Of a stretch of DNA of 44,245 nucleotides, positions 10,967 to 44,245 are shown piece by piece. The position numbers and the translations under genes are program-made. Below the pieces are notes generated by a model that worked only from the letters and a program-made list of their open reading frames with translations, was not told where the DNA came from and did not search any database. Source of the stretch: an uncultured Pseudomonadales bacterium (GTDB taxonomy: Bacteria; Patescibacteriota; Microgenomatia; UBA1400; PJMF01); NCBI GenBank assembly GCA_964400865.1, contig CAYNWG010000003.1, forward strand, positions 1 to 44,245, in the 5' to 3' direction. Every line of letters begins with the position of its first letter. Within the stretch, counting starts at the first letter, position 1.

Positions 10967-10974
10967 TCTACTGT

Positions 10975-11959: not shown

Positions 11960-12055
11960 TTTTTTGTTTTGATTACCTAGGTCTGTGAATTGCATTCTCA
12001 ACATTATATATCCCACTGGTCTATTCACTTTGGCAAAATATTGGCTGGAACCCAC

Positions 12056-12096
12056 TTGACGCCAACCGCTTTACTAGTACAATCTAGATCAGGAGG
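12056..12096 (+). promoter_or_regulatory. Sigma70-like promoter plus strong SD for the 12106 gene
   Basis: TTGACG 12056-12061, 16-nt spacer, TACAAT 12078-12083, then AGGAGG 12091-12096 lying 9 nt before ATG 12106. Confidence 0.55.
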
Positions 12097-12105
12097 AAAG
12101 ACTAT

Positions 12106-12966: not shown

Positions 12967-13033
12967 ACAACTTCCTCCCAATCTTAAAATATACACCTAC
13001 GCAATAGATATGTCTATCTGATTCTCTTTGAAA

Positions 13034-13699: not shown

Positions 13700-13700
13700 T

Positions 13701-14429: not shown

Positions 14430-14488
14430 AATAGAATTATTATCTCTCGAAGTGGCCAGATGTCAAATAAGTTGAGTAAATTAGCGTA

Positions 14489-14518
14489 TTGACTTCGCCA
14501 AGAAACTATCTCTATACT
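14489..14518 (+). promoter_or_regulatory. Sigma70-like promoter driving a leaderless mRNA for the surface operon
   Basis: TTGACT 14489-14494, 18-nt spacer, TATACT 14513-14518, then 7 nt to ATG 14526 with no SD. Confidence 0.55.
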
Positions 14519-14525
14519 GGATGAT

Positions 14526-15581: not shown

Positions 15582-15594
15582 TACACTGCTTAGT

Positions 15595-19410: not shown

Positions 19411-19455
19411 ATTTAGGTAAATTGCAAAAAGCTAGTGTACAATTGGGACAACACT

Positions 19456-29506: not shown

Positions 29507-29508
29507 GT

Positions 29509-32409
29509 TTATTGATCAAACGACATACGCTCGTGATACAGATGAATCAGCCACATTCCCAAATTTACACTGGTTAAAGTCATAAATGGTAGTACCGCCA
29601 CAAAACCAAAGTGGGGAATAAAAACCAACTCCATTAATAAGGCCAGCAGTAAAATCATTTCAAAGAATCCTTCTAACGCAACTTTGAATAAACCTCCAAG
29701 TGCGTGCAATGGATGCAATTTTTCTGATGATTGGTTGAGCCTAATGACATATTGGGTGAAGCCTGTTAATTCCTCTTCTGTAACTCGCTGTTCTAAGGGA
29801 GAGAAACCTTTGGCCGCAATTAGCAGGTGGACCGATGCTTCGCCTAGTTGTAAAGAAAATCTTCCTTGGACATCAGCGGCAAATTGGGTCACAATTTGAT
29901 TGTTTTTACCCAACACAGATATGACTGCATAACCAATTGCTTTGCGTTGTTCATCTACGACAACTCCCTGTAGCGACCAAAGTAAATGGGAATTTTTCAT
30001 ACTCCATAACCGATGCGAAATGACTTTGGGCAAATGCCTAATTGACACATTCATACGAGAAGCCAAGCTCAGATATGCCATACCAATTAAACTACTTAAA
30101 GCTAATAATGACAAAGTGTCGAACAACACTTTTGATGTTCGAATTTCTTTGAAAGATTCAGCGAAGTTAATTAGTTTGAAGTTAATTGCTTCGTAGTAAT
30201 ACTTAATCATTTCCAAAATGTTCCAGCCGGATGAGCTTAATTCTATGGTGGGATACAGCGAACGAGTGACACCGCCGATGGTAAAATCATGAGCAGTTGA
30301 GTGATACCCAAAGGCAGAAATTTCTGCCCGATACTCACCTGCTGGTAAGACAACTGCAAATTGACCTGAGCTCAGAGAGTAAAGTGGATTAGTTGCCAAG
30401 AAAGCTGGGGCGGGTAATAGAACATACCTTTTTGAATTTGGATCAAACCTATAGAGCAGTAAAGTTGCGTGCTCAATCGGTTCGCGCGTTTCTGCAGATC
30501 GTACTAAAAGTGGTGAACCAACAATCAAGGAAAATAAGGGTATTTGTTTGAGATTACCAAAGGAATCCTCAAGTTGCAAAATTATGAATTGTTCCTCACT
30601 AGGCATACCAGTGAATAGCTTGCCATTAAATGTTCGAGGTTTTGTTTCTGTTAGAGTAATGGGAAGCTGCTGCACTGCTCCATCTGAAAAATCATTTTGT
30701 CCTCTTATCATCAGTTTTGCCTGAGTGAGGGGAAAATCGGAGGCAAAAGTAAGACTCACTTCATAATCAGTTTGTTGTGGAATTACCAGCGGGTACCGAT
30801 CCAATTGGTCAGATTGATTATACAAAACGATCCCCCTTGATGTGACTACAGTTACAAATTGAGCATCTCCTAACTCAAGTTTCGTTTGAGCCGTAGTCGC
30901 CTGATAGAGGTTTGATTTGATAACCGTACCAGTATCATCAAGCGTCTCAGCTCTAAAATAATAGGTTGTAGCGGGTAGTAGACCTGGTAATACAAGACTG
31001 TGGAGAAACTGAGCAGTTGGAGAAGTAATCTGTACTGATACATCGTTTACAGTAGTGCCATAAAACAGCTTAATTGATTTGGCTTGTGAAAGTAAGATAT
31101 CAAGTGATATTGAATCATGACTGATTTGGGTGGTGGTAATGGAGCGAAATTTTACTGCAGAGACTGTGGGTATCGGTGAAAGAGTTGGTACGGTCGTACC
31201 AGTCGCATTTGTTGCTCCACACCTGTCATCTTGAGGATTAAGACGTATTCGACATCTCTGTTCAGCTAAATAACAATAATTTGTGTCGCACTCAGTGTCA
31301 GTAGCGCAACTCAAATTGCAGGCTTTTTTTGAACTTGGCTGCGGTGTACTAGTGGGTTGCGGTGAACTGGTAGGAATCAGTGCAGTAGTGGGGGTTGCCG
31401 TTGGTGACGGAGTGGGAGTAGTAAATTGATACTGATGAGTGATTGTGGAATCCGGTGTTGAAACTGGAGCAGTAATTCGAGCCGAGACGGGCACGTTTAC
31501 CAGTGTTGTGCCGGTATCAATAGCAGTTGCCTGTAATTGAAAAGTGACTGTTTGATTCTGCGTAGAAGCAGGAAAAGTGGAAATCGTCCAAGTAATCGTG
31601 CGATTAATGGTATCAATGACAGGATCAGTGGCACCATACGCTTGACTGGCGCTACCATCAACATACGAAAAAACTGGGACCGTTGGGGTACCACTCCCTT
31701 CCAATGTACCCAATGACCATTCAAATTGTAATGTGAGTGGAGTTGGATCAACGTAGTCAGAACCATAGGTAATGGTGTATGACAGAATGTTGTTTGGAGT
31801 AACACTACCGGTATGGCTTGTGGTCACGACGGCAGAAAAATCTTGTGCTATCGGGCCCACTCTGGCAGTAAAAACAATTTGATCATTGGCAATGACTGGT
31901 ACGCCAATATCTTGATCGCTGGAGGGTGTGCCGGCTACAAGCGTAGCAACATTCCAAACGTAATTGAGATCGTTGCCGGGGGCGGGATTGCTGGCAATCC
32001 CGCCCGTTATGTAGAATCCATAAGTTACTCCGTTAGTTAAGTCGCTGGCTGGGAATGTCACTGAGTTGCCCACTACAGATTGCGCTGTGGCAATACCAGG
32101 TACTGTGGTAACACCTGCAGGTAAATTAGAAGTGGAAACGGTATAGTCAGTAGCCACAGCGCTTACATTCCATGCCTGCCCCGCCGTCACTTGTATTCCA
32201 TTTTCAACCACACTCTCGGTTGTCCTGAACTGGACCAAAATAGCCCCTGGGTTAGTGTTAGCTTTTTGTCGTTCCAGCTTAATGCTCGCTACTGTAAGGT
32301 CAGCAGCTTGAACCAAATCTACCTTGAACAGAGTAATCATCGATATGAAAAAAAACAATCCAAAAACCAAACAAACAAACACGGCAGGTAAGTGTCGTTT
32401 AAAAAACAT
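29509..32409 (-). CDS. 966-aa mosaic envelope protein: surface-subunit-like N-domain, DUF11-like and FN3-like domains, two CarboxypepD_reg-like domains interleaved with TM segments
   Basis: Signal/anchor HLPAVFVCLVFGLFFFISMITLF. N-domain paralogous to the 351-aa protein. P/T linker, then Cys knot CNLSCATDTECDTNYCYLAEQRCRIRLNPQDDRCG. ATTYYFRAE (FN3-like). LPAGEYRAEISAFGYHS and LQGVVVDEQRKAIGYAVISV...GRFSL (carboxypeptidase-regulatory-like). Hydrophobic helices near aa 740-770 and 900-950. Confidence 0.8.
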   Translation of the reverse strand: MFFKRHLPAVFVCLVFGLFFFISMITLFKVDLVQAADLTVASIKLERQKANTNPGAILVQFRTTESVVENGIQVTAGQAWNVSAVATDYTVSTSNLPAGVTTVPGIATAQSVVGNSVTFPASDLTNGVTYGFYITGGIASNPAPGNDLNYVWNVATLVAGTPSSDQDIGVPVIANDQIVFTARVGPIAQDFSAVVTTSHTGSVTPNNILSYTITYGSDYVDPTPLTLQFEWSLGTLEGSGTPTVPVFSYVDGSASQAYGATDPVIDTINRTITWTISTFPASTQNQTVTFQLQATAIDTGTTLVNVPVSARITAPVSTPDSTITHQYQFTTPTPSPTATPTTALIPTSSPQPTSTPQPSSKKACNLSCATDTECDTNYCYLAEQRCRIRLNPQDDRCGATNATGTTVPTLSPIPTVSAVKFRSITTTQISHDSISLDILLSQAKSIKLFYGTTVNDVSVQITSPTAQFLHSLVLPGLLPATTYYFRAETLDDTGTVIKSNLYQATTAQTKLELGDAQFVTVVTSRGIVLYNQSDQLDRYPLVIPQQTDYEVSLTFASDFPLTQAKLMIRGQNDFSDGAVQQLPITLTETKPRTFNGKLFTGMPSEEQFIILQLEDSFGNLKQIPLFSLIVGSPLLVRSAETREPIEHATLLLYRFDPNSKRYVLLPAPAFLATNPLYSLSSGQFAVVLPAGEYRAEISAFGYHSTAHDFTIGGVTRSLYPTIELSSSGWNILEMIKYYYEAINFKLINFAESFKEIRTSKVLFDTLSLLALSSLIGMAYLSLASRMNVSIRHLPKVISHRLWSMKNSHLLWSLQGVVVDEQRKAIGYAVISVLGKNNQIVTQFAADVQGRFSLQLGEASVHLLIAAKGFSPLEQRVTEEELTGFTQYVIRLNQSSEKLHPLHALGGLFKVALEGFFEMILLLALLMELVFIPHFGFVAVLPFMTLTSVNLGMWLIHLYHERMSFDQ

Positions 32410-32560
32410 AATGATACTTCCATCATGACAGAAACATGCCTAAGACTCAATTAATAACTACAAACTGTCGTATTCCACGAGCCCGCGCCAGCTGGCTGTT
32501 TTTTTGCATAGTCCGTAGCAATTTGAAATAGTGGATCTAAATAAGCCTATCACTCGTTGA

Positions 32561-33112
32561 TCATGCAGTACGTGGTCGACGTACTCTCACCCGCTTGTCT
32601 CTGTTGGAAAGTATGCGTTTAAATATCTGGTCGCTTCCATCTATATAAAATACCTCTCCGGGTACAATGTTAGGAATAACTACATCATTTTCATCGACAT
32701 AGACAAACTGATTTTCCTCGTTACTAAGAATACGAAACCCACATTTTTGGTAATAAGGAATTATGTCAGTCTCACAAAAGCCGAGAAGCGTTCTGCCTTT
32801 TTCTTTGGCATACTTCTGAATTTCTGTAAGTACTCGCACTCCATATCCTCGTCCTTTTTGGGTTGCAATGACCGTTGAAACAAAAAGAACTAATACTGAT
32901 TCGTGACGAAATTTCAACGGCAATTCTTCTAGCAATGCAAATGCCAACAAATTATCACCGACTTTTAAAAGAAAATAGAAAGAATCTTGATCTTCATTTG
33001 AAGAAATTGAATTGCTTGGAATATCTACACCAAATTCTTGAGATCGAAACTTGTTAATTACCCTAAAATCATTTTTAGACAATTCATTTGAAGATACTAT
33101 TTTTAATTCCAT
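32561..33112 (-). CDS. GNAT family N-acetyltransferase
   Basis: Motif A region VIATQKGRGYGVRVLTEIQKYAKEKG, then YYQKCGFR. Confidence 0.8.
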   Translation of the reverse strand: MELKIVSSNELSKNDFRVINKFRSQEFGVDIPSNSISSNEDQDSFYFLLKVGDNLLAFALLEELPLKFRHESVLVLFVSTVIATQKGRGYGVRVLTEIQKYAKEKGRTLLGFCETDIIPYYQKCGFRILSNEENQFVYVDENDVVIPNIVPGEVFYIDGSDQIFKRILSNRDKRVRVRRPRTA

Positions 33113-33207
33113 TATCAGTAGTATCTACGGATTATGTAGCGTAATCAATCCCAGCAATAAGATAGAAAATACTTCACGACTTTGATTGATGAATTTGTAA
33201 CAAACAG

Positions 33208-33678
33208 TTAATAGCGTACTTTTTTCGCTCTCCCCGATCGTTTTTTATTCATGGCCATTTTATTCTTGCGCCGCTTTCTTCTTTCTCTTAACTGACGTTT
33301 CCTTTCGGCTTTGCTCTTTCTATTTTCTTCTCCAGAGCTCATTCCTCTACTCTTGTAAGTTCGCACTTGTGCAGCTGCCACTTCCATAGGATCAAGGTCA
33401 AATAGTGCCCAAGCTATAAATCCAATATCTTTGGGGCTCCATCTATGCTGATCTTCATTAGCCTTTGCATGACAATTCTTACAAAGATATGCCTCATTCT
33501 CTAGGCTTTTGATGATATGAGGGGCCAACATGGGATTCTGGGAACTCAAGTAAGCACCCACTAAATGATGTATTTCTCCGTTTGTTACATGTTTTCCACA
33601 CATTTCACAACAGCTTTCAACACCATCTCTTCTCTCTCGTTTTAGCTCTGATGAAAATTTGTATGGACCTCTACTCAT
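33208..33678 (-). CDS. HNH nuclease-domain protein with a Lys/Arg-rich C-terminal tail
   Basis: CCEMCG...GEIHHLV...NEAYLCKNCH, that is CxxC...HH...N...CxxCH. The tail is KSKAERKRQLRERRKRRKNK. Confidence 0.7.
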   Translation of the reverse strand: MSRGPYKFSSELKRERRDGVESCCEMCGKHVTNGEIHHLVGAYLSSQNPMLAPHIIKSLENEAYLCKNCHAKANEDQHRWSPKDIGFIAWALFDLDPMEVAAAQVRTYKSRGMSSGEENRKSKAERKRQLRERRKRRKNKMAMNKKRSGRAKKVRY

Positions 33679-33790
33679 AATGACGACATCTTTTCTCGCG
33701 TTTCTGCGGTTTTTTCACTAAAAATCCAATAGCCGCAATACTATCAGAATATGTCAGTATGAAAATAGGGAAAAATAGTTTAAACCAAAA

Positions 33791-34987
33791 CTACATCACA
33801 AACGTAAGCGCTTTGCCCATCTTGCCAGCACGACCAGTTCGACCAATGCGGTGCACGTAGTCATCATAGGATTGGGGCTCATCGTAGTTGATTACGTGGG
33901 TGACATCGTCGATATCGATGCCGCGCGCGGCCACATCAGTAGCGAGTAAAGCTTGCACGTGTCCTCGTTTGAATGCATCCAGAGATCGTTGGCGCGCGTT
34001 TTGGTTTTTATTTCCATGGATTGAGGTTACCCTCACTCCAAGCCTGGACAATGTCATTTCCAACTTATTGATTCCGTGTTTGGTTCTGCCAAATACCAAC
34101 ACTTTTTTGAAATCAGTTTGCAGTAATAATCCATGCAAAATATCAATCTTATTTTGTCCAGGTAATAATTTAATGACATCCTGTTCAATGTGGTCATTAA
34201 ATTCCTGCTTACTCACCTGAATCATAACTGGATTGGTTAACAACTTACGCGCAATGGCATCTGTATCGGCATTGATCGTAGCGCTAAAGAAGGCGGCGTG
34301 ACGAACAACGGGCAATTGAGCAATTAAAAATTGAATTGCTTGTCTAAACCCTATATCGAGCATTCGGTCAACCTCATCGAGCACGATATTGGTAAACAGT
34401 GCGGTTTTGAATGCCTTTCTGTCAATTAAATCCTTGATTCTACCGGGAGTACCGATGACAAAATGAGGATTTTTCTTGAGCTGGCGGATTTGTGTATCTA
34501 GGTTGGTACCACCAATACAGACACAAACGCCAATCGGCAAGCGATTGGCGAACGCTCTAAATTCGTCAGTGATTTGGAGCGCCAACTCGCGAGTTGGCGC
34601 CAATATCAAAACTCCCTGATTGGGATCTTGCAAAACTTTATGCAGTAGTGGTAATAAAAATGCGGCTGTTTTGCCAGTGCCAGTATTGGCAATGCCAATT
34701 ACATCTTTTCCTTGCATTAATTCAGGAATTGCCTGATCTTGAATCGGCGTTGGCAGTGTATACCCATGCTGTTGAATGTTTGCCAGTAACTGACTGTCCA
34801 AACCAAAGTCACTAAACGTGTTGAGTGCTTGGTAAGGCTCTTCTAGCTCTGGTTTTTGTGCAGCTTGCACATAGCGAGAAGGCGCAATATATGCACCCAT
34901 ATTTCTACGAGGTTGAACTGGTCCGCGTCGGCGTGATCCGCCAAATGAACCATATGAACGGGGTCTACCCCCATACATTTGAGACAT
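33791..34987 (-). CDS. DEAD-box ATP-dependent RNA helicase
   Basis: Q-motif region FSDFGL...GYTLPTPIQ, motif I ANTGTGKTAAF, motif II DEVD (DEAD variant), motif III SAT, motif VI HRIGRTGRAG. Short RGG-like N-terminus. Confidence 0.92.
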   Translation of the reverse strand: MSQMYGGRPRSYGSFGGSRRRGPVQPRRNMGAYIAPSRYVQAAQKPELEEPYQALNTFSDFGLDSQLLANIQQHGYTLPTPIQDQAIPELMQGKDVIGIANTGTGKTAAFLLPLLHKVLQDPNQGVLILAPTRELALQITDEFRAFANRLPIGVCVCIGGTNLDTQIRQLKKNPHFVIGTPGRIKDLIDRKAFKTALFTNIVLDEVDRMLDIGFRQAIQFLIAQLPVVRHAAFFSATINADTDAIARKLLTNPVMIQVSKQEFNDHIEQDVIKLLPGQNKIDILHGLLLQTDFKKVLVFGRTKHGINKLEMTLSRLGVRVTSIHGNKNQNARQRSLDAFKRGHVQALLATDVAARGIDIDDVTHVINYDEPQSYDDYVHRIGRTGRAGKMGKALTFVM

Positions 34988-35060
34988 AGTCTTCCTTTTA
35001 TATTTCAGCGGAGAGAATCACATTATTCACCATCAGGAGAATTTCAAACCGAGATCAAAT

Positions 35061-35088
35061 AGTATAGCGTAAAAGTCCTATAAGTCAA
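35061..35088 (-). promoter_or_regulatory. Sigma70-like promoter for the helicase, with a ~70-nt leader and SD
   Basis: Minus strand reads TTGACT (35088-35083), 16-nt spacer, TATACT (35066-35061). AAGGAAG precedes ATG 34987. Confidence 0.5.
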
Positions 35089-35271
35089 GCTAGTGCATTG
35101 GAGCGAAAAGACCTGGATCTTGTTGGATGCAGCGAGCAAAGGCTTGGATTTTTAACTGATTATACGGATATATGAGGGGATGATCAACTTTGCACCAATT
35201 ATCTCTGATTTTCCGCCTGACTCTCACATTGCATAAGTGTAATCGCTCAAAAAAGTACGTCACTGACAAAG

Positions 35272-35919
35272 TTATTGCGCCATTACTTGCCTCAACAAAC
35301 CACTGGTTACAAAAGCCTCAGTTTTTTCCTGCCAAGTAAAGGGATGGCTAGCTAGCTTATCCATAAACGAGGCATTGTCACTTACGGCAAGAATTTTAAA
35401 TAGATCTCCTGGAAGATCACTGGAACACCAGGAGTTTCGCACCTTATCCAAAACAGGATTTGTAAATATCTGCGGTCCACAGATTGCCCGTATGATAAAC
35501 ATGCAAGCAGGATCCAAACCATCAAACCACGAATCTCCACTCAGTAATGTCTCTGCAGTAATGCTATCTTTGTGAGCTCTTACGCACTCCACAAACTTAG
35601 TAATTACTTGTTTAGTCATTTCTGCGAGTTGATCCCTATCCCAAATTCGTCTAGCTTCACGATCATGATCGCCGTTTATCGTAGCTAATTCTTGAAGAGC
35701 TCGGGCACCTTGCTCTACTCTGTTAACTCCAGTCTCCTCAGTGCGAGCAGTCACAGCCCCCTCACCTATTCCCCCACTTCCTGAAATAGTAGCCTGTTTG
35801 GCTACAAAATCTCTTAGAAGCGAATCCAGCTTCGCTGAGAGCGTTTGGTTACCTCCCAATCGATCCTTTCCTGGTTGTCCACCTCCAGATAACTCATCTG
35901 CTGGGTGCTCATGTACCAT
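35272..35919 (-). CDS. Hypothetical protein (orphan, locally elevated GC)
   Basis: ATG 35919 is preceded by AAGGA; the track start at 35979 is a TTG. No recognisable motif. Several hand-counted lines run 45-55% GC. Confidence 0.55.
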   Translation of the reverse strand: MVHEHPADELSGGGQPGKDRLGGNQTLSAKLDSLLRDFVAKQATISGSGGIGEGAVTARTEETGVNRVEQGARALQELATINGDHDREARRIWDRDQLAEMTKQVITKFVECVRAHKDSITAETLLSGDSWFDGLDPACMFIIRAICGPQIFTNPVLDKVRNSWCSSDLPGDLFKILAVSDNASFMDKLASHPFTWQEKTEAFVTSGLLRQVMAQ

Positions 35920-36033
35920 ATATTCCTTTGTTCTTAATACTCTCTCTGTACTATATGGAATAATCACTATGAGTGTCAAGTTGCTGATAGCCAGAAATTA
36001 CCTCAACAACTTCCTGATGATTGGATAATTAAT

Positions 36034-36486
36034 TCAAGATCTGAGAGATTGATCAATCACAAACAACTGATTTTTCCTAAGTAGGGGTAAATTTTCCAAT
36101 GAAAAGAAGCCAAATTCGGATACTTCGTGTGTCGGCCGAAACTCACCACCAATCAGCACTCCTTTGTAACAAATATCCAAACGCGCGGTTTCACGATCCG
36201 TCAAAGTTTTTAATATTTCATCCACGCTTACAACCAAGCCAGATTCCTCTTTTATTTCTCTTTCTAATCCTTCACTAGGATGCTCGCCAGATTTTAAATA
36301 CCCACCTGGTAAACTCCACGCATGTGATCTGTAAGTATGCTTAAACAGCAAGATTTCATCTTTGTCATTATAAATTATTCCAGTTAGGCCAACCAAAAAT
36401 TGATCCTGAAAAAACCGCATAAAACTTAGTTGAATATGTTTGGGGAAACCTACTGATTTCCAAATTTTAGCAAGTATGGATTTCAC
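36034..36486 (-). CDS. NUDIX hydrolase
   Basis: Nudix box GGYLKSGEHPSEGLEREIKEESGL. GTG start overlaps the upstream stop (GTGA). Confidence 0.85.
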   Translation of the reverse strand: MKSILAKIWKSVGFPKHIQLSFMRFFQDQFLVGLTGIIYNDKDEILLFKHTYRSHAWSLPGGYLKSGEHPSEGLEREIKEESGLVVSVDEILKTLTDRETARLDICYKGVLIGGEFRPTHEVSEFGFFSLENLPLLRKNQLFVIDQSLRS

Positions 36487-36857
36487 ATTGCCTTAGTATC
36501 GATTAATTTATCGCCAGAGATATCTTCAAACTTTTTGTTCTCCAATTCCAGCTGATGTATTCTCTTGGTTAATTCAAGCACCTGATCTTTATTTTTTTCA
36601 ATTTCTTTGTTTTTTCCCCTCAATCTGTAAGAGTTTCCAATCGCATGAAATAAATATGCCAAATATCCCAAGATCAAACCGACTAATACTGAGGTAACGA
36701 TGACATAGAAAAGCGGAATATCGGTGATGGTATACATGCCTAAATTCACAGACACCAGCATAAAATTAAATTTTGAGAGATAGACTAATACAGATCCAAC
36801 CACCAACAGCAAAATAATCGCTAACATAAATCCCCCAAATATTCCTGTAAACCTCAT
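36483..36857 (-). CDS. Small membrane protein, LapA/DUF1049-like (2 TM plus coiled coil)
   Basis: Two TM helices (FMLAIILLLVVGSVLVYL; IPLFYVIVTSVLVGLILGYLAYLF) followed by a heptad-like segment KNKDQVLELTKRIHQLELENKKFE. Confidence 0.45.
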   Translation of the reverse strand: MRFTGIFGGFMLAIILLLVVGSVLVYLSKFNFMLVSVNLGMYTITDIPLFYVIVTSVLVGLILGYLAYLFHAIGNSYRLRGKNKEIEKNKDQVLELTKRIHQLELENKKFEDISGDKLIDTKAM

Positions 36858-36895
36858 CTAGTATACACTGAAAGTTGGTAATCCTTGCCACCAAG

Positions 36896-37588
36896 TCAGT
36901 AAATGTGACGCAGTATCGTATCCATAACGGCGGTGCGAGCAACAGCCGGGTCTAAGCTTCGGAAAAAATGATTGCTGTTGGATAAACCAAATTGTTGCCA
37001 TATTTTTTGACCGTTTTCTGAGAGATAGTAGCTTTCTATTGTAATAATAGCGCGATTAAGCAGGATCCCAACTCCAATTGCGTTAAGAAGGGAGCCAATA
37101 CCCACCGCATAATTATCTGGTTCACCAATAAGTAATGGACGCCTTCTTTCGAGGGTCATCGCCGAATTTACAAACCAATTAACACTTTCTCCATTGATAC
37201 GCCATCCTAAATTATCTAGTGGAATATATTGTGAATGATGGCATTTTAAATCAGTAAAAACATATTGCTCGCCGGTTTGTTTTTTGCAAAAAGCCAAATC
37301 GCAATGAGCAATCAAACCAAATTCATCAACCGGAAACACAGTGCCATTGCTTTGCACATATGCAACTATAGTTGTCAATTCCTCAACAGCGTCAGTAATT
37401 ATTTCGTACTTTTTTCCCTTTGGGGGGATAAGTGTATTTACCCACACAAATAGTTTCTCTCCGCTTAGCGAGCGCGTGGCGATTTCAATTGGCACTGGAC
37501 TAGTTGTAACTAATTGTAAAAAGTCAGCAACACGTTTAATTTGCTCAGTTCTATCTTGAATTTTTGTGATGCCCTCGATGTAATTCAT
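36896..37588 (-). CDS. Hypothetical protein (230 aa)
   Basis: ATG ORF with coding-like composition. A weak GNAT-like segment (AVGIGSLLNAIGVGILLNRA) is not sufficient for a call. Confidence 0.55.
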   Translation of the reverse strand: MNYIEGITKIQDRTEQIKRVADFLQLVTTSPVPIEIATRSLSGEKLFVWVNTLIPPKGKKYEIITDAVEELTTIVAYVQSNGTVFPVDEFGLIAHCDLAFCKKQTGEQYVFTDLKCHHSQYIPLDNLGWRINGESVNWFVNSAMTLERRRPLLIGEPDNYAVGIGSLLNAIGVGILLNRAIITIESYYLSENGQKIWQQFGLSNSNHFFRSLDPAVARTAVMDTILRHIY

Positions 37589-37643
37589 GATCTAACTATC
37601 CCCAGTCAGCTTAACACAGTCTTTATTTCTGCATTAAATTGAA

Positions 37644-38219
37644 TCATTCTTGCTTAAACGGCAAGTGTTTTCTTATCACGAGTAGCACCATAATCAAGTT
37701 AATTAAAATAATATACAACGGGTATAAATATTGATCGAAAACTAATTTTTCGGTTGCCAGTAGATTGCAGATGCCCGCACAAACATCAAGAAAATAAAAC
37801 GTCCACACTTCAGTCTTTGGAAAATGATACGTTTTAATTAAGGTGGGCACAATGCCAATAAAATCAGCTCCGATGGCAAAATACAAAGCAATAAGCGGGT
37901 CTTGAGTTAATTTCCAGGCAGCAATTCCCGCTAAGGCAGTGAGTAAACAAAAAATATCAAGCTTGGACCACCCCCCCATTCCGTACTTAATGCTCAAACC
38001 GAAGATAATCACCGATTGAAAAGTAGAAATCCCCGATAACCAAACCGCCACCTGATTATCTTGAGCGAGTAGTGAAAGAGTCGTGAGTGTAGAAATTACT
38101 AAAAATACTAATCTAGTGGTCCGGTGCGGTTTAGCCTGACCTCTCAAAATTGCAATAAAATACACAAACGATGAAAGGGATGCTAACAAAACGCTAGCAG
38201 TTATCAGAATGTTTTGCAT
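37644..38219 (-). CDS. Polytopic membrane protein (about 6 TM), unknown family
   Basis: Hydrophobic helices run the whole length. ATG 38219 is preferred over the adjacent GTG 38222. Confidence 0.6.
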   Translation of the reverse strand: MQNILITASVLLASLSSFVYFIAILRGQAKPHRTTRLVFLVISTLTTLSLLAQDNQVAVWLSGISTFQSVIIFGLSIKYGMGGWSKLDIFCLLTALAGIAAWKLTQDPLIALYFAIGADFIGIVPTLIKTYHFPKTEVWTFYFLDVCAGICNLLATEKLVFDQYLYPLYIILINLIMVLLVIRKHLPFKQE

Positions 38220-38246
38220 CACCTGCCGATTTTGTTGTTAGTAGGA

Positions 38247-38396
38247 TTAGAAAGAATTAATAATTGGGTAATACATATAACCCAAATAAGCACCGACAAA
38301 TGGCAGAGCAATGAAAAGCGCAGCTGCCAATAATTTGGACAAAGTGGTCACTTTGGTAAGAGGGTTTGGGGTTTTTGCAACCGATTTTTTGGACAT
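38247..38396 (-). CDS. Possible 49-aa small membrane protein (below the ORF-track cutoff)
   Basis: Hand translation gives MSKKSVAKTPNPLTKVTTLSKLLAAALFIALPFVGAYLGYMYYPIINSF*: a basic N-terminus plus one clean TM helix. It overlaps the implausible 65-aa track ORF 38257..38454 in another frame. Confidence 0.35.
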   Translation of the reverse strand: MSKKSVAKTPNPLTKVTTLSKLLAAALFIALPFVGAYLGYMYYPIINSF

Positions 38397-38473
38397 ACAA
38401 TAAATGTAGCACATTAGCTTCAACAATAAAACGACTACCTGCCCTATTGTGCAACTAAATACATAGTGTGAAT

Positions 38474-38989
38474 TTAATTAGAACTATCTTTTGGCAAGCT
38501 TTCGCAAGCTTCACCATCATTATCGCCATCCAAGCGATTAACGTCGTGTTCTGTGCCACCTACTTTCTCAAAAAACCGCTGAGATTCAGGCTGCGTAATA
38601 AAGTCATCACAATTATAATCATCGGCTTTTTTACCTTTTGTGCCATCTGTAGTAATTTCACCAAACTTGTCAAACAATACGTTGCCCTCAACATCACGTG
38701 ATATCTTTGAATCCTCAAATGACTTGGACTCCCAAAGTTTTTGCAAATCCCAATCATTTTGAGAAACCTCTAGTCCTAATGCTGTAAGTAAGGTAACAAA
38801 AATAATAGCGAGAAAGATGCGAGCTTTGGTCCAAAAAATAAACATAATAGCGACGATCACCAATAACACCGCAATTAAGCCTAAACGAAATTTATGATTA
38901 CCCCGAAGCTTGGAAAGCTTTGAGGGTCCCTTTGCAACAGTTTTTTCTGATTTGGCTGTTTTATCTGATTCAGTGGTTTTTTCGTTCAT
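38474..38989 (-). CDS. Membrane-anchored Excalibur calcium-binding domain protein
   Basis: C-terminus DYNCDDFITQPESQRFFEKVGGTEHDVNRLDGDNDGEACESL matches the Excalibur DxDxDGxxCE motif. TM LGLIAVLLVIVAIMFIFW. ATG 38989 is preferred because the longest ORF would collide with the divergent gene at 39046. Confidence 0.75.
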   Translation of the reverse strand: MNEKTTESDKTAKSEKTVAKGPSKLSKLRGNHKFRLGLIAVLLVIVAIMFIFWTKARIFLAIIFVTLLTALGLEVSQNDWDLQKLWESKSFEDSKISRDVEGNVLFDKFGEITTDGTKGKKADDYNCDDFITQPESQRFFEKVGGTEHDVNRLDGDNDGEACESLPKDSSN

Positions 38990-39009
38990 ATGCTTTGATT
39001 GTACTCCCT

Positions 39010-39039
39010 TTGATGGTTCTCTGCAGTATTTGCTATACT
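39010..39039 (+). promoter_or_regulatory. Extended -10 promoter giving a leaderless mRNA for the 39046 gene
   Basis: TTGATG 39010-39015, 18-nt spacer, TGcTATACT 39031-39039, then 6 nt to ATG 39046. Confidence 0.5.
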
Positions 39040-39045
39040 TGATCA

Positions 39046-39726
39046 ATGCCCCTTTTTACGCAACCAAAGCAAATGCTGATGATTTTAATTTGTCTCGCGA
39101 TGGTTGGTCTAACAATTTCGACAACCATGCTTTGGCTGAAAGTAGATCGTGCAGAACAACTGCTAATAAAAAGTACTCAAGAAGTAGCCACGCCTGTAGA
39201 TTCTGAAGATTTTCCAGATTCGCCGTCTTTTATTTCGGCTGCTGATCAAGATCAGCTAGAAGCTTCTGTTTCTGCGCTCGCAGCTAGATTAGAACAAACT
39301 GAACTAAATTTAAAAACTGTAATAAACCAAATCACCACGTCTACAAGCGTACAGCAAAATAATGTCGCACCTTCCTTCACCAAAGAAACGCTCTATCTTG
39401 GTTCAGCAAGCACCACCAGTCGCGATTGGAACGAAACTGGTTTGGAGATCGGCGTCAATTCTGCTCACTACCCCACTGGCGTTACTGTCAAACTAGAGGC
39501 TTCAGTATCGATTATTGGTGGTGAAGCCTGGGTTCGCTTAAAAAATAAAACAACCGGCGCTGTCATTTCGCTGTCAGAAATTTCTCATAATACTAGCGCG
39601 GCTACTTGGAAACTGTCGCCGAGTTTTGCCTTGCATTCAGGCGGATACACCTATGTCCTAGAGGCACGTTCAACCAGCGGAGAGACCGCTGATATTTCTG
39701 GAGCTCGGCTGATTATAGAAAAATAG
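39046..39726 (+). CDS. Hypothetical N-terminally anchored extracytoplasmic protein
   Basis: TM MLMILICLAMVGLTISTTMLWL, a coiled segment, and a beta-rich C-terminal domain. Confidence 0.6.
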   Translation: MPLFTQPKQMLMILICLAMVGLTISTTMLWLKVDRAEQLLIKSTQEVATPVDSEDFPDSPSFISAADQDQLEASVSALAARLEQTELNLKTVINQITTSTSVQQNNVAPSFTKETLYLGSASTTSRDWNETGLEIGVNSAHYPTGVTVKLEASVSIIGGEAWVRLKNKTTGAVISLSEISHNTSAATWKLSPSFALHSGGYTYVLEARSTSGETADISGARLIIEK

Positions 39727-39754
39727 TTAGTTTGAATGAGTGATAAATTTTGAG

Positions 39755-39782
39755 TTGAACCCTTTTTCTATACTGATATACT
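39755..39782 (+). promoter_or_regulatory. Promoter with extended -10 giving a leaderless mRNA for the 39789 gene
   Basis: TTGAAC 39755-39760, 16-nt spacer, TGaTATACT 39774-39782, then 6 nt to ATG 39789. Confidence 0.55.
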
Positions 39783-39788
39783 ATCAAA

Positions 39789-40421
39789 ATGAATCGTAAT
39801 GAATCATGGACTCGATCCATCAAGGATGCTAGCCCATTTAGATTTGTTTATCCAGAGTTTTTGACCCATCTTCAGTCGCTTGAATTACAACCGAAACATA
39901 TTTCTGGTTCTGTATTGGTTATTGGTCAATCTGCTGCTTGCCCCGAAAAAACGTTACTAGCTACACCAGAATCAAGTTTTCAGGTTTTAAGACGCGAGGT
40001 AACCTCAGTTTTTTTCTGTGATTCCGACCTTTTTACCGCACCACATATTCATTTTGATAATCCAGTAATCAATACCATTGATTTTGATGTCCTACCCCAA
40101 CCAAGACAAGGGGAAATCTATTTTGAAATGAGTTCAAGTTATGACTTTTTACAGCGGGCACCAACGAATTTTTTTGATTCAGCCCTGATGATTCGAGTAG
40201 AAGACACTGGTACACAAATAGCAGATTATGATCTGATAAAACAATTAGCGCCACATCTCAAACCTGGTGGATTTTTCATTTGTAGCGGGGGCAGATTCCC
40301 AACGCATCTTAAATCAGAATTTTTCTCACCCCTATCGCCAGTTCGAGTGGTTCAGTTACCAAATTACAGCGGTGGTTATCCGTTTATTAACAACATGGGA
40401 GCAATCTTACAAAAGATGTAA
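39789..40421 (+). CDS. Hypothetical protein, weakly SAM-methyltransferase-like
   Basis: VLVIGQSAA (motif I-like) and LKPGGFFICSGG (post-motif II-like). These are weak matches by eye only. Confidence 0.35.
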   Translation: MNRNESWTRSIKDASPFRFVYPEFLTHLQSLELQPKHISGSVLVIGQSAACPEKTLLATPESSFQVLRREVTSVFFCDSDLFTAPHIHFDNPVINTIDFDVLPQPRQGEIYFEMSSSYDFLQRAPTNFFDSALMIRVEDTGTQIADYDLIKQLAPHLKPGGFFICSGGRFPTHLKSEFFSPLSPVRVVQLPNYSGGYPFINNMGAILQKM

Positions 40422-40425
40422 CTCT

Positions 40426-40668
40426 CTAAAACAGTAACTGAGAAATAATTATATTCTTCAGTTTATCCCAAATGTCCCCAGTGCGTTCGATTGTGTGAAC
40501 GCTCAGTGGCCAACCAACGAGTTCCTCAACATCTGCCGCTGTCTTCAAGCAGTCAGCATGTTTTGATAGCACTATAGCTACTCCAGGATTTCCCTTCGCA
40601 TACGCATGAATGGCCTCTGTAACTTCCCAACTAAACGGTACTGGCGCATTTGCTTCAATGATACTCAA
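40426..40668 (-). CDS. Hypothetical 80-aa protein (TTG start, or frameshifted remnant)
   Basis: The ORF begins at a TTG that overlaps the TGA of a 22-codon leaderless ORF starting at ATG 40733. No SD and no recognisable family. Confidence 0.35.
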   Translation of the reverse strand: MSIIEANAPVPFSWEVTEAIHAYAKGNPGVAIVLSKHADCLKTAADVEELVGWPLSVHTIERTGDIWDKLKNIIISQLLF

Positions 40669-40739
40669 AATATGGAGCTTTTTGTCTGTATTGGAACTTG
40701 CGGTTCGAGTGGAAGAATTGTGAGTTGCTCCATGTTTCT

Positions 40740-40768
40740 AATATAGGTAGATGAAAAGACAAAGTCAA
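40740..40768 (-). promoter_or_regulatory. Sigma70-like promoter, copy 1 of a duplicated promoter cassette (leaderless)
   Basis: Minus strand reads TTGACT (40768-40763), 17-nt spacer, TATATT (40745-40740), AGAAAC, then ATG at 40733. Confidence 0.55.
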
Positions 40769-40821
40769 ATTATGCGTCCTATTCCGTGTATAATCCATCA
40801 CTCGGGTTATGAGAATTTTAT

Positions 40822-42444
40822 ATGTTACTTGAAACAACTAATCTAGCCAAATCGATAGGAGCTACATATCTTTTCCAAGATCTAGCTTTTACAATTGTGG
40901 CGGGAGAAAAAATTGCCCTCATTGGTAGAAACGGTTATGGAAAAACAACTTTGCTCAAAATCCTCAGTGGTGAAGATCATGATTTTGAAGGCACAGTTAA
41001 AACCCGCAAAGGTACTCGGATATTACTTACCAAACAAGAACATATCCAAGAAACAGAACAATCTGCGTTGGAGTATATTTTAAAAAGTGTTCCCCACTAT
41101 TTTGAGTATCAAAAATTCCTCGAAGAATATGAAAGTGGTCAGAATACAAATTTAAACCGATATTTGGAAATATTAGAATACTGTACCGAACATAAGTACT
41201 TCAATTTACAAGAAGCTGTTATCAGCAGCCTGGAGGACTTTGGCATATCTACGGCAATGATTCACCAACCATTACAGCATTTATCTGGCGGTCAAAAACG
41301 ATATGTTGAAATGACTCGGATGATGTTTTCTCAGGCTGATATCCTCCTGATTGATGAACCAACAAATCACATGGACTACAAAGGCAAAGAGCGCTTTATC
41401 ACTTGGATGCGGAGTATTCCGCAAGCAATCGTCGTCATTACCCACGACAGAGACGTGCTCAAAAATGTCACCAAAATCATTGAGTTAAAAGATCGAAAAA
41501 TGCACTTTTTTAAGGGTAATTACCATAACTATATTAAACAAAACGCCACACAAACACTTACTTCGGTGAAACTCTATGAAGATCAACTCAGCCGTCTGAA
41601 GGAAGCAAAGAAGAAAGTTGAGTGGGGACTACAAATGCGCGCCAAGAGCAAAGAGTGGAAGATTCGCTACGATCATTGGCTGAGAGACTATGAAAAAATT
41701 AAAGCAGCCACAATCAAACCAGCGTTTTGGATTGATCAGAATTCAATCGAAAGTTTGGATAAAAAAGTAGTTGATTCGTATGATAAGTTTAAAGAAAAAA
41801 ACATTAAGATTTCTGGTACTGGTGATGTAAAAAGAGGTGGAGAGCTAGTTTCTGTCCGAAAATTGGCAGTAGGGTATGATGATTGCCTCTTCTCTGAAAT
41901 CAATTTTAGCCTTAAAGAAAGTGGACGTGTACTGATTAAAGGTAGAAATGGCGCCGGAAAAAGTACTTTGGTAAAGACATTGATTGCGTTATCAGAAAAG
42001 CTACCACCAACCGCTAATCTATTGGACGGCGAAATTAAATTTGGCAATGATCTGAGAATCGGCGAATATCAACAAGAAATTGATGGAAAATATCTTTCAC
42101 TACCACTAGCCGAAGCAATTCGCGTCATTCATGAGGAAAAACAGGTGGCGATTGATGAAAGAAAAGTCTATAGTTTGCTCGCCCAATATTTATTTGACAC
42201 CAAATTAGATGCACACCAAAAAATTATCAATCTATCGGGTGGTCAAAAAGCTCGATTTCAATTAATCAAAATGTTTATCGGTGAACCAAATTTATTAATT
42301 CTTGATGAACCAACCAACCATTTGGATTTACCCTCAATTGAAGAACTTGAAACAATGCTCGAAAAGTTTCCTGGGGCAATTCTCTATATTTCTCATGACA
42401 CCTATTTCATCAATCGCCTCGGTGGAGACACGATTGAACTATAG
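40822..42444 (+). CDS. ABC-F family ATPase (two ABC domains, no TM domain)
   Basis: Domain 1: GRNGYGKTTLLK, LSGGQKRYVEMTRM, LLIDEPTNHMD. Basic linker. Domain 2: GRNGAGKSTLVK, LSGGQKARFQLIKM, LILDEPTNHLD. Confidence 0.92.
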   Translation: MLLETTNLAKSIGATYLFQDLAFTIVAGEKIALIGRNGYGKTTLLKILSGEDHDFEGTVKTRKGTRILLTKQEHIQETEQSALEYILKSVPHYFEYQKFLEEYESGQNTNLNRYLEILEYCTEHKYFNLQEAVISSLEDFGISTAMIHQPLQHLSGGQKRYVEMTRMMFSQADILLIDEPTNHMDYKGKERFITWMRSIPQAIVVITHDRDVLKNVTKIIELKDRKMHFFKGNYHNYIKQNATQTLTSVKLYEDQLSRLKEAKKKVEWGLQMRAKSKEWKIRYDHWLRDYEKIKAATIKPAFWIDQNSIESLDKKVVDSYDKFKEKNIKISGTGDVKRGGELVSVRKLAVGYDDCLFSEINFSLKESGRVLIKGRNGAGKSTLVKTLIALSEKLPPTANLLDGEIKFGNDLRIGEYQQEIDGKYLSLPLAEAIRVIHEEKQVAIDERKVYSLLAQYLFDTKLDAHQKIINLSGGQKARFQLIKMFIGEPNLLILDEPTNHLDLPSIEELETMLEKFPGAILYISHDTYFINRLGGDTIEL

Positions 42445-42464
42445 TTTTGCCATGAAACCAAAAT

Positions 42465-43049
42465 TTATTTGATGCAAGCTCCATCCAAACAGCCGTTGGG
42501 ACAATTGGTAATCATACTGCCTTGGACATAATTGCCACTGCCAGCTGGACTTTCATAACACCACATTTCATTGACTTGAAGTTTGGAGCCAGTACATTCG
42601 TCGCTAACTGTGGTGGCTACTCCATTTTCATCAGTATAGGTAACAGTACCTTTAATTTTAATATCGTCTGGTTTTTCGTTGACATCTGAATCAACACATG
42701 CCGATTTCACACAAATGCCATTTTTCCAAAGTCCTTTGCAAGTTTTTTTCTCAACTTCCTCTTTTTCAGCCGTCGCTGCTGAGGCGATTCGTTCTAAATC
42801 TCCTAGCTTAGTCTCCAAAACCGCGTTTTCGGCTTTCATTTCTAGTAAAATCCGAGCACTTTCAATATTTTCATTTTTAAGCTGATCCAACATTTTTTGA
42901 TGAGTACTTTGTTGCAAAAAAAACACGCCTCCGCCCACCACGATTGCGGTTAATAAAACCAAAACATACACGAGTAGGTATTTTGGTGATTTATTTATTG
43001 GTTGAGTTTGGGGACTGTTTTGAAAAAGTTGGTTTGCTTGTTGTTCCAT
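42465..43049 (-). CDS. Membrane-anchored protein with coiled coil and Cys-rich C-terminal domain
   Basis: ATG 43049 (MEQQANQ...) lies 6 nt after the -10 box; the track start at 43073 falls inside the promoter. TM YLLVYVLVLLTAIVVGGGVFF, heptad region, then 10 Cys ending NCPNGCLDGACIK. Confidence 0.65.
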   Translation of the reverse strand: MEQQANQLFQNSPQTQPINKSPKYLLVYVLVLLTAIVVGGGVFFLQQSTHQKMLDQLKNENIESARILLEMKAENAVLETKLGDLERIASAATAEKEEVEKKTCKGLWKNGICVKSACVDSDVNEKPDDIKIKGTVTYTDENGVATTVSDECTGSKLQVNEMWCYESPAGSGNYVQGSMITNCPNGCLDGACIK

Positions 43050-43055
43050 GTTTCT

Positions 43056-43084
43056 AATATAGGTAGACGGCAAGACAATGTCAA
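43056..43084 (-). promoter_or_regulatory. Sigma70-like promoter, copy 2 of the duplicated cassette (leaderless)
   Basis: Minus strand reads TTGACA (43084-43079), 17-nt spacer, TATATT (43061-43056), AGAAAC, then ATG at 43049. Confidence 0.6.
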
Positions 43085-43104
43085 ATAATACTATGGATTT
43101 GGGA

Positions 43105-43155
43105 AACCTTTCGTCCTTTTGGACTCATCAGTACGGACACACATCCGTAGAGGCT
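43105..43155 (-). ncRNA. Hammerhead ribozyme, type III topology
   Basis: Minus-strand RNA is AGCCUC^UACGGA-UGUGUG-UCCGUA-CUGAUGA-GUCC-AAAA-GGAC-GAAA-GGUU. Both conserved cores are intact (C3UGAUGA9 and G12AA14). Stem I is a 6-bp hairpin and stem II a 4-bp hairpin with the G10.1-C11.1 pair. Stem III is open, 5 bp, with the A15.1-U16.1 pair. Predicted cleavage is after C17, between 43150 and 43149. Confidence 0.8.
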
Positions 43156-43188
43156 AAAGCTGCGGAACGGAGGTTCCGCAGCTTTAGC
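43153..43188 (-). other. Perfect 16-bp / 4-nt-loop hairpin immediately 5' of the ribozyme, sharing 3 nt with its stem III
   Basis: GCTAAAGCTGCGGAAC (43153-43168), GGAG loop, GTTCCGCAGCTTTAGC (43173-43188). No mismatch. Neither strand has a flanking U-tract. Confidence 0.85.
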
Positions 43189-43210
43189 ACTTGTATCAAA
43201 AAAGTTGTTG

Positions 43211-44188
43211 TTACGGAACGATGGGTCGTTCGCTCAGCGACCCATCGGGATTCATGAATGGTGGCACTTGCCCACCGTACATGAGCACCCAGAGAATTCT
43301 CCAGTCTGCGGTGACGTAGGCAGCCAGTAGCTTCTGCGCCACCTGGACGCGATTGTCCGCGTCCAATAGCGCTTGCTCTCTGGCAAATGCTGCCCGCTCC
43401 GCCTTCAATTTGTTCTCGGCCGCCAGGTTTTTCTGTTGCTCCTGCAACAGCGCCGCCTGGTTCTGCTCGACCGCCAACTCCTGCTCCCGTTGGAGCTGAG
43501 CCTGTCTCCAGGCCTCGTCTCCAAAAGTGATAGACCTTATCATAACCGCGTCGATCACAATCGGGGTCGCTTCTGTGGATGAGACTAGTATGTCCTGATA
43601 GACCATTTCCAGCCGCTGGCGACCAAACTGAGTTTTAAGCTCATCTGGAGTAAAGTCCGCGCTTGCACTACGGCTTCCTCTGAGAGCTGAGCCAATGTAG
43701 TTTTGAACCGCCAACTTGGGGTTTTGCAACTTCCATAGCTCAGCGGGATCGCTCGTGTTGAAGTGGAAGATCAAGTCCAAATCAACCGCTATTTCGACGT
43801 GACTATCAGCCACTGTCGCACGGTCTAGCGTTGTCTCGCATAGATATGAAGCGCAGGCCTTCTCGTCCGCGAGTAACTCTTCTCTCAACGTCCGATAGCG
43901 CTGACTCCCAGTCGGGTAGAAAATCACCTCATCGGCTGGCACGTAGTGCCGGCCAGGTGGCAGCATTTCATACGCTCCATCACCTGACTGCCGAACCACT
44001 AACCAGCCAGGTGCCACGATCGTCATGTCACGAAAGATAGTGACATCGCCCTCTGCCAAGTTGGGGTACGGCCCCGGGATAAGGTTCTCCCGGCCATCCC
44101 AACCTAGCTTGCCTTCGGGAACGACAAGGATATTCTTGACCTGCATTCCTTTGTCGTCCTTATTGTACTCGTTCCCCGCTGTCACCAC
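43211..44188 (-). CDS. SPFH / band-7 (prohibitin-flotillin-HflK/C-like) domain protein, high-GC gene
   Basis: IVAPGWLVVRQS..YEMLPPGRHYVP, VEIAVDLDLIFHFNTSDP, ALRGS....TPDEL and IVIDAVMIRSITF, followed by a Gln/Ala/Glu-rich coiled coil, fit the SPFH fold pattern. Start is uncertain: GTG 44188 or ATG 44146 with AAGGA upstream. The frame also stays open to the right edge at 44245. Confidence 0.6.
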   Translation of the reverse strand: MVTAGNEYNKDDKGMQVKNILVVPEGKLGWDGRENLIPGPYPNLAEGDVTIFRDMTIVAPGWLVVRQSGDGAYEMLPPGRHYVPADEVIFYPTGSQRYRTLREELLADEKACASYLCETTLDRATVADSHVEIAVDLDLIFHFNTSDPAELWKLQNPKLAVQNYIGSALRGSRSASADFTPDELKTQFGRQRLEMVYQDILVSSTEATPIVIDAVMIRSITFGDEAWRQAQLQREQELAVEQNQAALLQEQQKNLAAENKLKAERAAFAREQALLDADNRVQVAQKLLAAYVTADWRILWVLMYGGQVPPFMNPDGSLSERPIVP

Positions 44189-44245
44189 TGTGGTGTAGCG
44201 GGGTGCACTGCCACCTGGCAGGAAAGCTGGGTTCAGCTTGACTGC

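Follow-up and report, generated by a model that had tools for sequence, protein, structure and literature searches.

The minus strand of contig CAYNWG010000003.1 (assembly GCA_964400865.1), a 44,245-nt stretch of DNA that was analysed as a whole and is termed the window below, encodes a type III hammerhead ribozyme (43105-43155) in the 3' untranslated region of a gene for an SPFH/Band 7 domain protein. The ribozyme begins 55 nt past the stop codon of this gene and is preceded by a 16-bp RNA hairpin. Judging from the sequence, we propose with a probability of roughly 0.6 that it is functional and acts jointly with the hairpin, and on balance we favor a role in processing the 3' end of the upstream message. 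That the element is a real hammerhead maintained by selection is very probable, and about 92 copies of the same ribozyme, after removal of duplicates, were collected from other genomes and contigs.

In the direction of the transcript (43155 to 43105), the ribozyme starts with the 5' strand of stem III (AGCCU, 43155-43151), followed by the cleavable nucleotide C17 (43150). Stem I consists of UACGGA (43149-43144) and UCCGUA (43137-43132), capped by loop I (UGUGUG, 43143-43138). The core strand CUGAUGA (43131-43125) leads into stem II, in which GUCC (43124-43121) pairs with GGAC (43116-43113) under loop II (AAAA, 43120-43117). G12, A13 and A14 (43112-43110) and the 3' strand of stem III (AGGUU, 43109-43105) complete the element, the GAAA motif occupying 43112-43109. 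The hammerhead core is thus complete, comprising C3 U4 G5 A6 N7 G8 A9, G12 A13 A14, the A15.1-U16.1 pair (43109/43151) and a residue other than G at position 17. The helix order is that of type III, with an open stem III, loop-capped stems I and II, and the G10.1-C11.1 pair (43124/43113) closing stem II. A preliminary description made from the sequence had listed these core positions, stems and loops, and each of them was recovered at its place in the sequence and in a descriptor scan. Hammerhead numbering puts the predicted scissile bond between C17 (43150) and U1.1 (43149), and hence a predicted new 5'-OH end at 43149. Cleavage by this ribozyme class leaves a 2',3'-cyclic phosphate on the upstream product and a 5'-OH on the downstream product; the upstream RNA of the window would end in a C with a 2',3'-cyclic phosphate, and the first nucleotide of the downstream RNA would be a U bearing the 5'-OH.

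Scanned with a permissive type III descriptor, for which stems of 4, 3 and 3 bp suffice, the window gave one match, at a hammerhead with stems of 5, 6-7 and 4 bp, compared to a single match in total across 1000 dinucleotide-shuffled windows. A pattern of the core plus stem II had no match in 100 shuffles. The Rfam model RF00008 (Hammerhead_3) aligned over its full length (positions 1-54 of 54) with 38.0 bits and an E-value of 5.9e-7 for the 301 nt searched in E-value mode, which corresponds to roughly 1e-4 when rescaled to the whole window. Folding of the isolated 61-nt RNA gave the three-way hammerhead junction as the minimum free energy (MFE) structure, with an unremarkable z-score of -1.07. 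Family model R1, built from the gap-free alignment described below, scored 77 bits at the window hammerhead, which is one of its seed members, and 9 bits at the next match in the window. Neither the descriptor scan nor R1 found a second or degenerate hammerhead copy in the 44-kb window, and none of the remaining 19 CTGATGA sites has hammerhead context, in line with the earlier statement that no other such site is flanked by the required helices. The motif CTGATGA itself occurs 20 times in the window, against 6.1 expected from shuffles (highest shuffle 10), which possibly reflects codon or repeat usage in very large open reading frames (ORFs; 2002 and 3057 aa). Both fold and chemistry are those of the canonical type III hammerhead, an already known ribozyme class.

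Three pattern scans were performed against IMG/VR, metagenome contigs and species-representative genomes. The search pattern prescribed stem II and the AGG in stem III, with no constraint on stem I, on either loop or on the stem III 5' strand. IMG/VR contributed a single viral contig, L004, whose ribozyme is the same but has a compensated stem I, UACAAG/CUUGUA compared to UACGGA/UCCGUA in the window. Broader IMG/VR patterns returned 41 and 66 matches, nearly all of them chance matches, and only L004 passed the descriptor. The metagenome scan gave 62 loci, all of which carry a complete type III hammerhead except one cut by the contig end, and 36 of the 41 loci from species-representative genomes have the same architecture. 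The genome records are mostly metagenome-assembled genomes (MAGs) of Patescibacteria, or the candidate phyla radiation (CPR), and include Woese-, Shapiro-, Gottesman-, Roizman-, Falkow- and Kaiserbacteria, Saccharibacteria and Parcubacteria. About a dozen records (TPA_asm) are labelled 'uncultured Gammaproteobacteria/Pseudomonadales' (L177, L178, L179, L191, L195, L199, L200, L204, L206, L211 and L213). These labels are doubtful, because L206 shares both the ribozyme and the upstream protein family with L180 and L203, which are labelled as Patescibacteria.

Comparative analysis of these copies revealed that the pairing is maintained while the sequence changes. In a gap-free alignment of 49 copies, 95.3% of the cells at paired positions hold a standard pair, 131 cells are compensatory, and double-sided changes occur in 11 of the 16 pairs. 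No shuffle out of 500 matched the covariation values, and partners slid by 1-3 columns pair at only 28-44%. Covariation is strong in stems I and III, and RNAalifold predicted the same junction de novo. Copies outside the search pattern, present in the same loci, have a compensated stem II (GUCU/AGAC and GCUC/GAGC), and R1 located second and third copies in the loci of some relatives. The type III identity given in the preliminary description is therefore strengthened by a full-length model match together with some 90 relatives showing compensatory pairing. Loop I (UGUGUR) and loop II (NAAA), both unconstrained by the search, reach a conservation of 90% or more at several positions. In natural hammerheads, a contact between loops I and II is needed for fast cleavage at physiological Mg2+, and from the sequence conservation we infer that a loop-loop tertiary contact of this kind may form here.

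The pattern of the core plus stem II also caught a group of type I hammerheads, separate from the CPR type III family. These have the form GGUUAA, CUGAUGA, GUCC..GGAC, GAAA, a closed stem III, UC and UUAACC, and were found on phage-like IMG/VR contigs (L001, L002, L003 and L005) and on contigs of Aliivibrio/marine Gammaproteobacteria MAGs (L183, L198 and L208).

The family members share a fixed position and orientation behind genes. Gene maps were drawn with a crude heuristic that takes the longest non-overlapping ORFs, with no gene caller, for the 63 intergenic copies having at least 400 nt on both sides. An ORF on the same strand ends upstream in 56 of these 63, at a median distance of 66 nt (interquartile range 55-98; 55 nt in the window). 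Downstream, 30 copies are followed by a co-directional gene and 28 by a convergent one, and the stop codon of the convergent gene often lies 0-10 nt from the ribozyme. The orientation of the ribozyme is thus tied to the upstream gene alone, as would be expected of a 3'-end element. The upstream proteins are diverse, forming 44 clusters among 72 proteins, and a Pfam search at E <= 1e-5 matched only 5 of 59 (alignment A2). Among the upstream proteins are several from Saccharibacteria that are large (~600 aa) and membrane or secreted-looking, and their genes converge with a glutamyl-tRNA synthetase-like gene. In some relatives, ACCA-like ends reminiscent of tRNA 3' ends are present upstream.

In most family members, a strong hairpin stands between the upstream gene and the ribozyme. 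The 70 nt upstream of the ribozymes fold with a mean z-score of -3.9 against shuffles, and 74% of the copies lie below -2. The distance from the final base pair of the hairpin to the scissile bond is 4-8 nt in 70 of 87 copies, so that the hairpin abuts the stem III 5' strand. From one locus to another, the hairpins show no sequence relationship. Compared to 369 control-gene 3' flanks from the same loci, the best 50-nt window upstream of the ribozymes is markedly more stable (median -19.75 vs -11.4 kcal/mol; Mann-Whitney p = 2.5e-10), and 70% of the ribozyme hairpins, compared to 25% of the control flanks, fold at -15 kcal/mol or below. The common layout consists of a stop codon, a spacer of ~15-40 nt, the hairpin and the ribozyme. 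In addition, the ribozyme is kept behind orthologous genes at protein identities of 27-48%, 38-60% and 50-86%, and substitutions within its stems I and III compensate each other. This points to old, selected associations rather than recent insertions.

Several CPR loci (L126, L161, L185, L186, L117 and L129) contain two family hammerheads, placed after two conserved genes of a single gene set, as exemplified by L161 (585-635 and 2959-3009 on the ribozyme strand). The gene order comprises a 100-160-aa protein, a hammerhead and a ~320-aa kinase-like protein, followed by a ~380-aa DGTGSMG protein, a hammerhead and a ~485-aa adenylosuccinate-synthetase-like protein. A match to PF00709 was found among the flanking proteins, and the gene set could be a defence or phage-derived module. 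Another candidate feature was dismissed: in several relatives an ATG lies 5-10 nt downstream, so that cleavage might expose the AGG in the stem III 3' strand for use as a Shine-Dalgarno sequence; this reading was rejected as evidence because the search pattern itself forced GAAAGG.

In the window, the hairpin is GCUAAAGCUGCGGAAC-CUCC-GUUCCGCAGCUUUAGC (43153-43188, minus strand), which was recovered as a 16-bp stem when 43090-43215 was folded (z = -6.4), as the preliminary description had it. Its final three nucleotides (AGC) are at the same time the outer three nucleotides of the stem III 5' strand. The hairpin is followed by CUCUACGG with no U-tract, and a terminator scan found no terminator-like site on either strand of 42300-43400; the hairpin is therefore not a canonical intrinsic terminator. 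Terminator-like sites (a hairpin plus a T-run) are not enriched in the window overall either, numbering 25 in 1-20000 compared to 17.7 +/- 3.7 in shuffles, and 8 in 24246-44245 compared to 16.7 +/- 4.2.

The gene upstream of the hairpin (43211-44245, minus strand; stop codon 43213-43211) matches the SPFH/Band 7 family PF01145 with 32 bits (cutoff 23.6). Its product lacks the N-terminus, because the reading frame is still open at the window end (44245). L147, L153 and L193, the last being a Candidatus Woesebacteria MAG, align with the window over many kilobases at 85-90% identity; the window itself looks like DNA of an ultra-small CPR bacterium. This homology spans the SPFH gene, the hairpin and the ribozyme, and ends at 43107, the 3' edge of the ribozyme. 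The same hairpin is present at the orthologous locus L147, where the ribozyme is identical at 49 of 51 nt, compared to 73.5% nucleotide identity in the adjoining SPFH gene. The encoded SPFH protein is 72% identical to its L147 orthologue, which has a lipoprotein-like N-terminus. The gene itself is more diverged than the flanking genes (85-88%). Together with the hairpin and the ribozyme, it forms a single-gene island of ~1.2 kb with 52-53% GC within surroundings of 36-42% GC, in L147 (2500-3700) as well as in the window (43100-44245). The island may reflect either a horizontal origin or the effect of an Ala/Gln/Glu/Arg-rich coiled-coil sequence.

A segment of 661 bp (42446-43106) separates the hammerhead from the ABC-F gene in the window and holds a co-directional ORF of 194 aa (42465-43049, minus strand, from ATG 43049) with no Pfam match. 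The counterpart in the relatives (L147 3773-5799 and L153 1565-3591) is ~2 kb long and contains a convergent ORF of 408 aa, the indel junction coinciding with the 3' edge of the ribozyme. The 194-aa ORF thus lies outside the conserved module. A putative sigma-70-type promoter (TTGACA, 17-nt spacer, TATATT; 43056-43084, minus strand), the -35 box of which had been mentioned before, was recovered by a consensus scan with 11 of 12 matches; it is the joint best site in 24246-44245 and starts 20 nt past the 3' end of the ribozyme. Because ATG 43049 sits 7 nt after the -10 box, the downstream gene may be leaderless. The promoter region of the 194-aa ORF (43034-43089) matches L147 7473-7528 at 84%, a segment that corresponds to the region preceding the ABC-F gene; in the window, that region contains a similar promoter-like site (TTGACT, 17-nt spacer, TATATT; 40768-40740). 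It looks like a duplicated promoter segment. Exact-protein look-ups returned no database record for the SPFH product or the 194-aa product, and a tRNA search of the window found none.

Based on this arrangement, we propose that RNA polymerase would pass the hairpin, after which no U-tract follows, and go on to transcribe the ribozyme, which would fold and cut after C43150. The SPFH mRNA would be left with a 3' end consisting of the hairpin, CCUC and a 2',3'-cyclic phosphate, and should resist 3' exonucleases. The read-through RNA toward the next promoter and gene would be detached with a 5'-OH, and a 5'-3' exonuclease that tolerates such an end, for example RNase J, might degrade it and perhaps bring transcription to a stop. 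In this way, the module would give the upstream message a defined, stabilized 3' end and uncouple it from the downstream sequence. The preliminary description had likewise suggested that self-cleavage separates read-through transcripts and leaves an mRNA ending in the hairpin, and the family context agrees with it, given the orientation fixed to the upstream gene only, the hairpin 4-8 nt before the cleavage site and the homology ending at the ribozyme edge. More tentatively, hairpin-hammerhead modules may make mRNA 3' ends in many CPR/Patescibacteria and some phages, replacing or supplementing intrinsic termination; we hold this broader proposal with slightly less than even confidence.

Several points weigh against a functional 3'-end module. 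With 38.0 bits, the window hammerhead misses the RF00008 gathering score of 48.5 bits, and for this reason an Rfam scan of the window at gathering thresholds reported no match and default annotation overlooks it. The Rfam search suggested in the preliminary description thus gave a full-length match below the gathering score. The loss arises from shorter outer stem III pairs and differing loop lengths, and the gathering score is a threshold set in curation that says nothing of what the structure requires. The same applies to the relatives: none of ~24 copies in 20 of their loci reaches the gathering score, so that the whole sub-family is invisible to default Rfam annotation. The search pattern, having fixed stem II and part of stem III, restricts the family picture to one sub-clade, and for the same reason covariation in stem II comes from three off-pattern copies only. 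The family context is drawn from crude longest-ORF gene maps, and in ~10 co-directional cases the next ATG is at most 10 nt from the ribozyme, an arrangement that fits a role in the downstream message too. Self-cleavage of the window copy and of the family members is a prediction from sequence, and cleavage per se does not halt the polymerase.

The folding of the window RNA in its native context also speaks against the formation of stem III. Nearest-neighbor folding gives no stem III there, because the hairpin occupies three of the five nucleotides of its 5' strand. Opening stem III lowers the energy of hammerhead-competent conformers by 3-5 kcal/mol, and in the partition function of a 121-nt context the stem III pair probabilities are at most 1e-4. 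The MFE structure of a 126-nt RNA pairs GAAAGGUU with an upstream U-run and buries the GAAA. These predictions are not decisive, since the energy models omit the tertiary contacts of the hammerhead as well as the coaxial stacking of abutting helices, and the pairing of GAAAGGUU with the U-run is not kept in L147. They would fit a window copy that is sequence-perfect yet silent, in which the hairpin and the GAAAGGUU pairing block stem III, just 2-3 bp of which are free of competition, and the hairpin alone serves as a 3' stabilizer or pause site. We regard this as very unlikely: all core nucleotides are intact, the conservation between the window and L147 copies far exceeds that of the adjoining coding sequence, and a short stem III abutting a hairpin is typical of the whole family. 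A chance match devoid of biological meaning could be argued from the sub-threshold Rfam score and the modest z-score of the isolated fold. It is effectively refuted by the comparative data, namely ~90 covarying relatives and conservation at orthologous loci, as well as by the RF00008 E-value and the rarity of matches in shuffled windows with a far looser descriptor.

Two further explanations were considered. The ribozyme might serve the downstream gene by trimming read-through or operon RNA so that the next cistron receives a short, defined 5'-OH end and is shielded from upstream sequence, similar to synthetic ribozyme insulators. The co-directional ORFs (30 of 58), particularly those with a nearby ATG, are in favor of such a role, as are a related motif in Pseudomonas phage DL54 that shares nucleotides with the start codon of the first coding sequence (CDS) annotated there and documented bacterial hammerheads that flank ORFs in polycistronic RNAs (PMC3088659). 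The other 28 of 58 face a convergent gene whose stop codon is often only 0-10 nt away, leaving nothing to process, and in the window a near-consensus promoter-like site intervenes between the ribozyme and the next ATG; these two observations argue most strongly against it. Moreover, orthologous loci keep the ribozyme and not the downstream gene, and the conserved partner, the hairpin, stands upstream, making a downstream function unlikely. Alternatively, the ribozyme could be a passenger or remnant of mobile or transferred DNA, such as a cassette, a phage fragment or a small ribozyme-bearing element, kept by its spread and not because it benefits the host gene. This would account for the GC-rich single-gene island in the window and L147, the synteny break exactly at the ribozyme edge, and near-identical cores that follow genes from 44 or more unrelated protein clusters and recur on a viral contig; most upstream proteins also have no Pfam domain, as reported near bacterial hammerheads. 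A mobile origin is nevertheless quite unlikely, as neither flanking repeats nor paired ribozymes occur at the locus, every locus has its own hairpin and stem I, so that the copies are not recent, the ribozyme persists at orthologous positions across 27-60% protein identity, and some neighbors are housekeeping genes, e.g., the convergent glutamyl-tRNA synthetase-like gene. With respect to a prophage association, the 44 kb hold a single copy and a search for viral relatives of the SPFH protein found none; yet there are the GC island, the relative on L004 and the two to three copies at some loci. The link to phage or mobile DNA raised in the preliminary description is only weakly supported, by the one viral contig and the island.

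Compared to the type III hammerheads of plant viroids, satellite RNAs and retrozymes (RF00008), the window ribozyme has the same catalytic core and topology, its stem II (GUCC/GGAC) equals the Rfam consensus, and its conserved loops I and II could form the usual tertiary contact. They differ in setting and dimensions: the window copy is single and lies in an mRNA 3' region of a bacterial chromosome, not in a circular RNA replicon or tandem repeat, and has a loop II of 4 nt, a loop I of 6 nt and a stem III of 4-6 bp. Like an intrinsic terminator, the module is located tens of nucleotides past a stop codon, is oriented with the upstream gene, contains a GC-rich hairpin and would leave an mRNA ending after a stem-loop; unlike one, the window hairpin has no U-tract, and the 3' end would be made by self-cleavage rather than by polymerase release. 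Self-cleaving ribozymes that control message fate from within an mRNA include the hammerheads in the 3' untranslated regions of mammalian Clec2 genes, glmS and RiboJ. The Clec2 hammerhead is eukaryotic and discontinuous, whereas glmS is a different, metabolite-dependent ribozyme in a 5' untranslated region, the 5'-OH product of which is degraded by RNase J1. RiboJ, a synthetic insulator, is an engineered type III hammerhead with an adjacent hairpin, which is placed in the 5' untranslated region and has the hairpin downstream of the ribozyme.

An unannotated hammerhead-like motif was also observed in Bruynoghevirus (51 records), e.g., in Pseudomonas phage DL54 (NC_028919.1, ~44921-44971, corresponding to L214 703-753, plus strand). 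It reads AUCGU, A, UCGGGA, UGUGUG, UCCCGG, CUGAUGA, UUCC, AAAA, GGAU, GAAA and CGAU. It shares the core, both loops (UGUGUG and AAAA) and the stem lengths with the window ribozyme and scores 55 bits with R1. In contrast, its 10.1-11.1 position is U.U instead of G-C, and it is located close to a genome end and immediately before a start codon, instead of following a gene and its hairpin; in DL54, the 3' strand of its stem III overlaps the ATG with which the first annotated CDS begins. A literature search linking hammerheads to LUZ24-like phages found none.

Type I and type III hammerheads in intergenic regions of bacteria were reported in 2010-2011, and their biological role was called open (PMC6155905, PMC3088659). 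The reports comprise bacterial and prophage hammerheads by de la Pena and Garcia-Robles (2010), as far as summarized in PMC6155905, and the bacterial hammerheads of Perreault et al. 2011 (PMC3088659). The present family resembles them in being canonical, intergenic, next to poorly conserved ORFs and sometimes present in several copies per locus. Those reports emphasize proximity to integrases and prophages and ribozymes that flank ORFs, whereas the present family resides mostly in CPR/Patescibacteria MAGs, occupies a fixed post-stop position, follows an upstream hairpin and in half of the cases faces a convergent gene. Searches with CPR taxon names found no literature linking hammerheads to these taxa, and searches with 3'-end and exonuclease terms found no published description of a CPR-wide hairpin-hammerhead 3'-end module; not all journals were covered, and both results are absence of evidence only. 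What is newly noted here is the concentration in CPR and the fixed hairpin-ribozyme layout behind genes, the ribozyme class itself being known.

Hammerheads are the commonest self-cleaving ribozymes. The sub-family of ~90 copies described here, which standard Rfam annotation does not report, is concentrated in the little-studied CPR bacteria, and annotation of CPR genomes would gain from a dedicated model. Its layout yields a testable hypothesis of function, namely ribozyme-made, hairpin-protected mRNA 3' ends, for which cultivable Saccharibacteria and the cultured Pseudomonas phages bearing the related motif are tractable systems, and the module could serve as a natural part that defines transcript ends. 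If true, this would be the first general physiological function for bacterial hammerheads, by which the 3' ends of messages are defined and protected, and read-through into co-directional or convergent neighbors is cut off.

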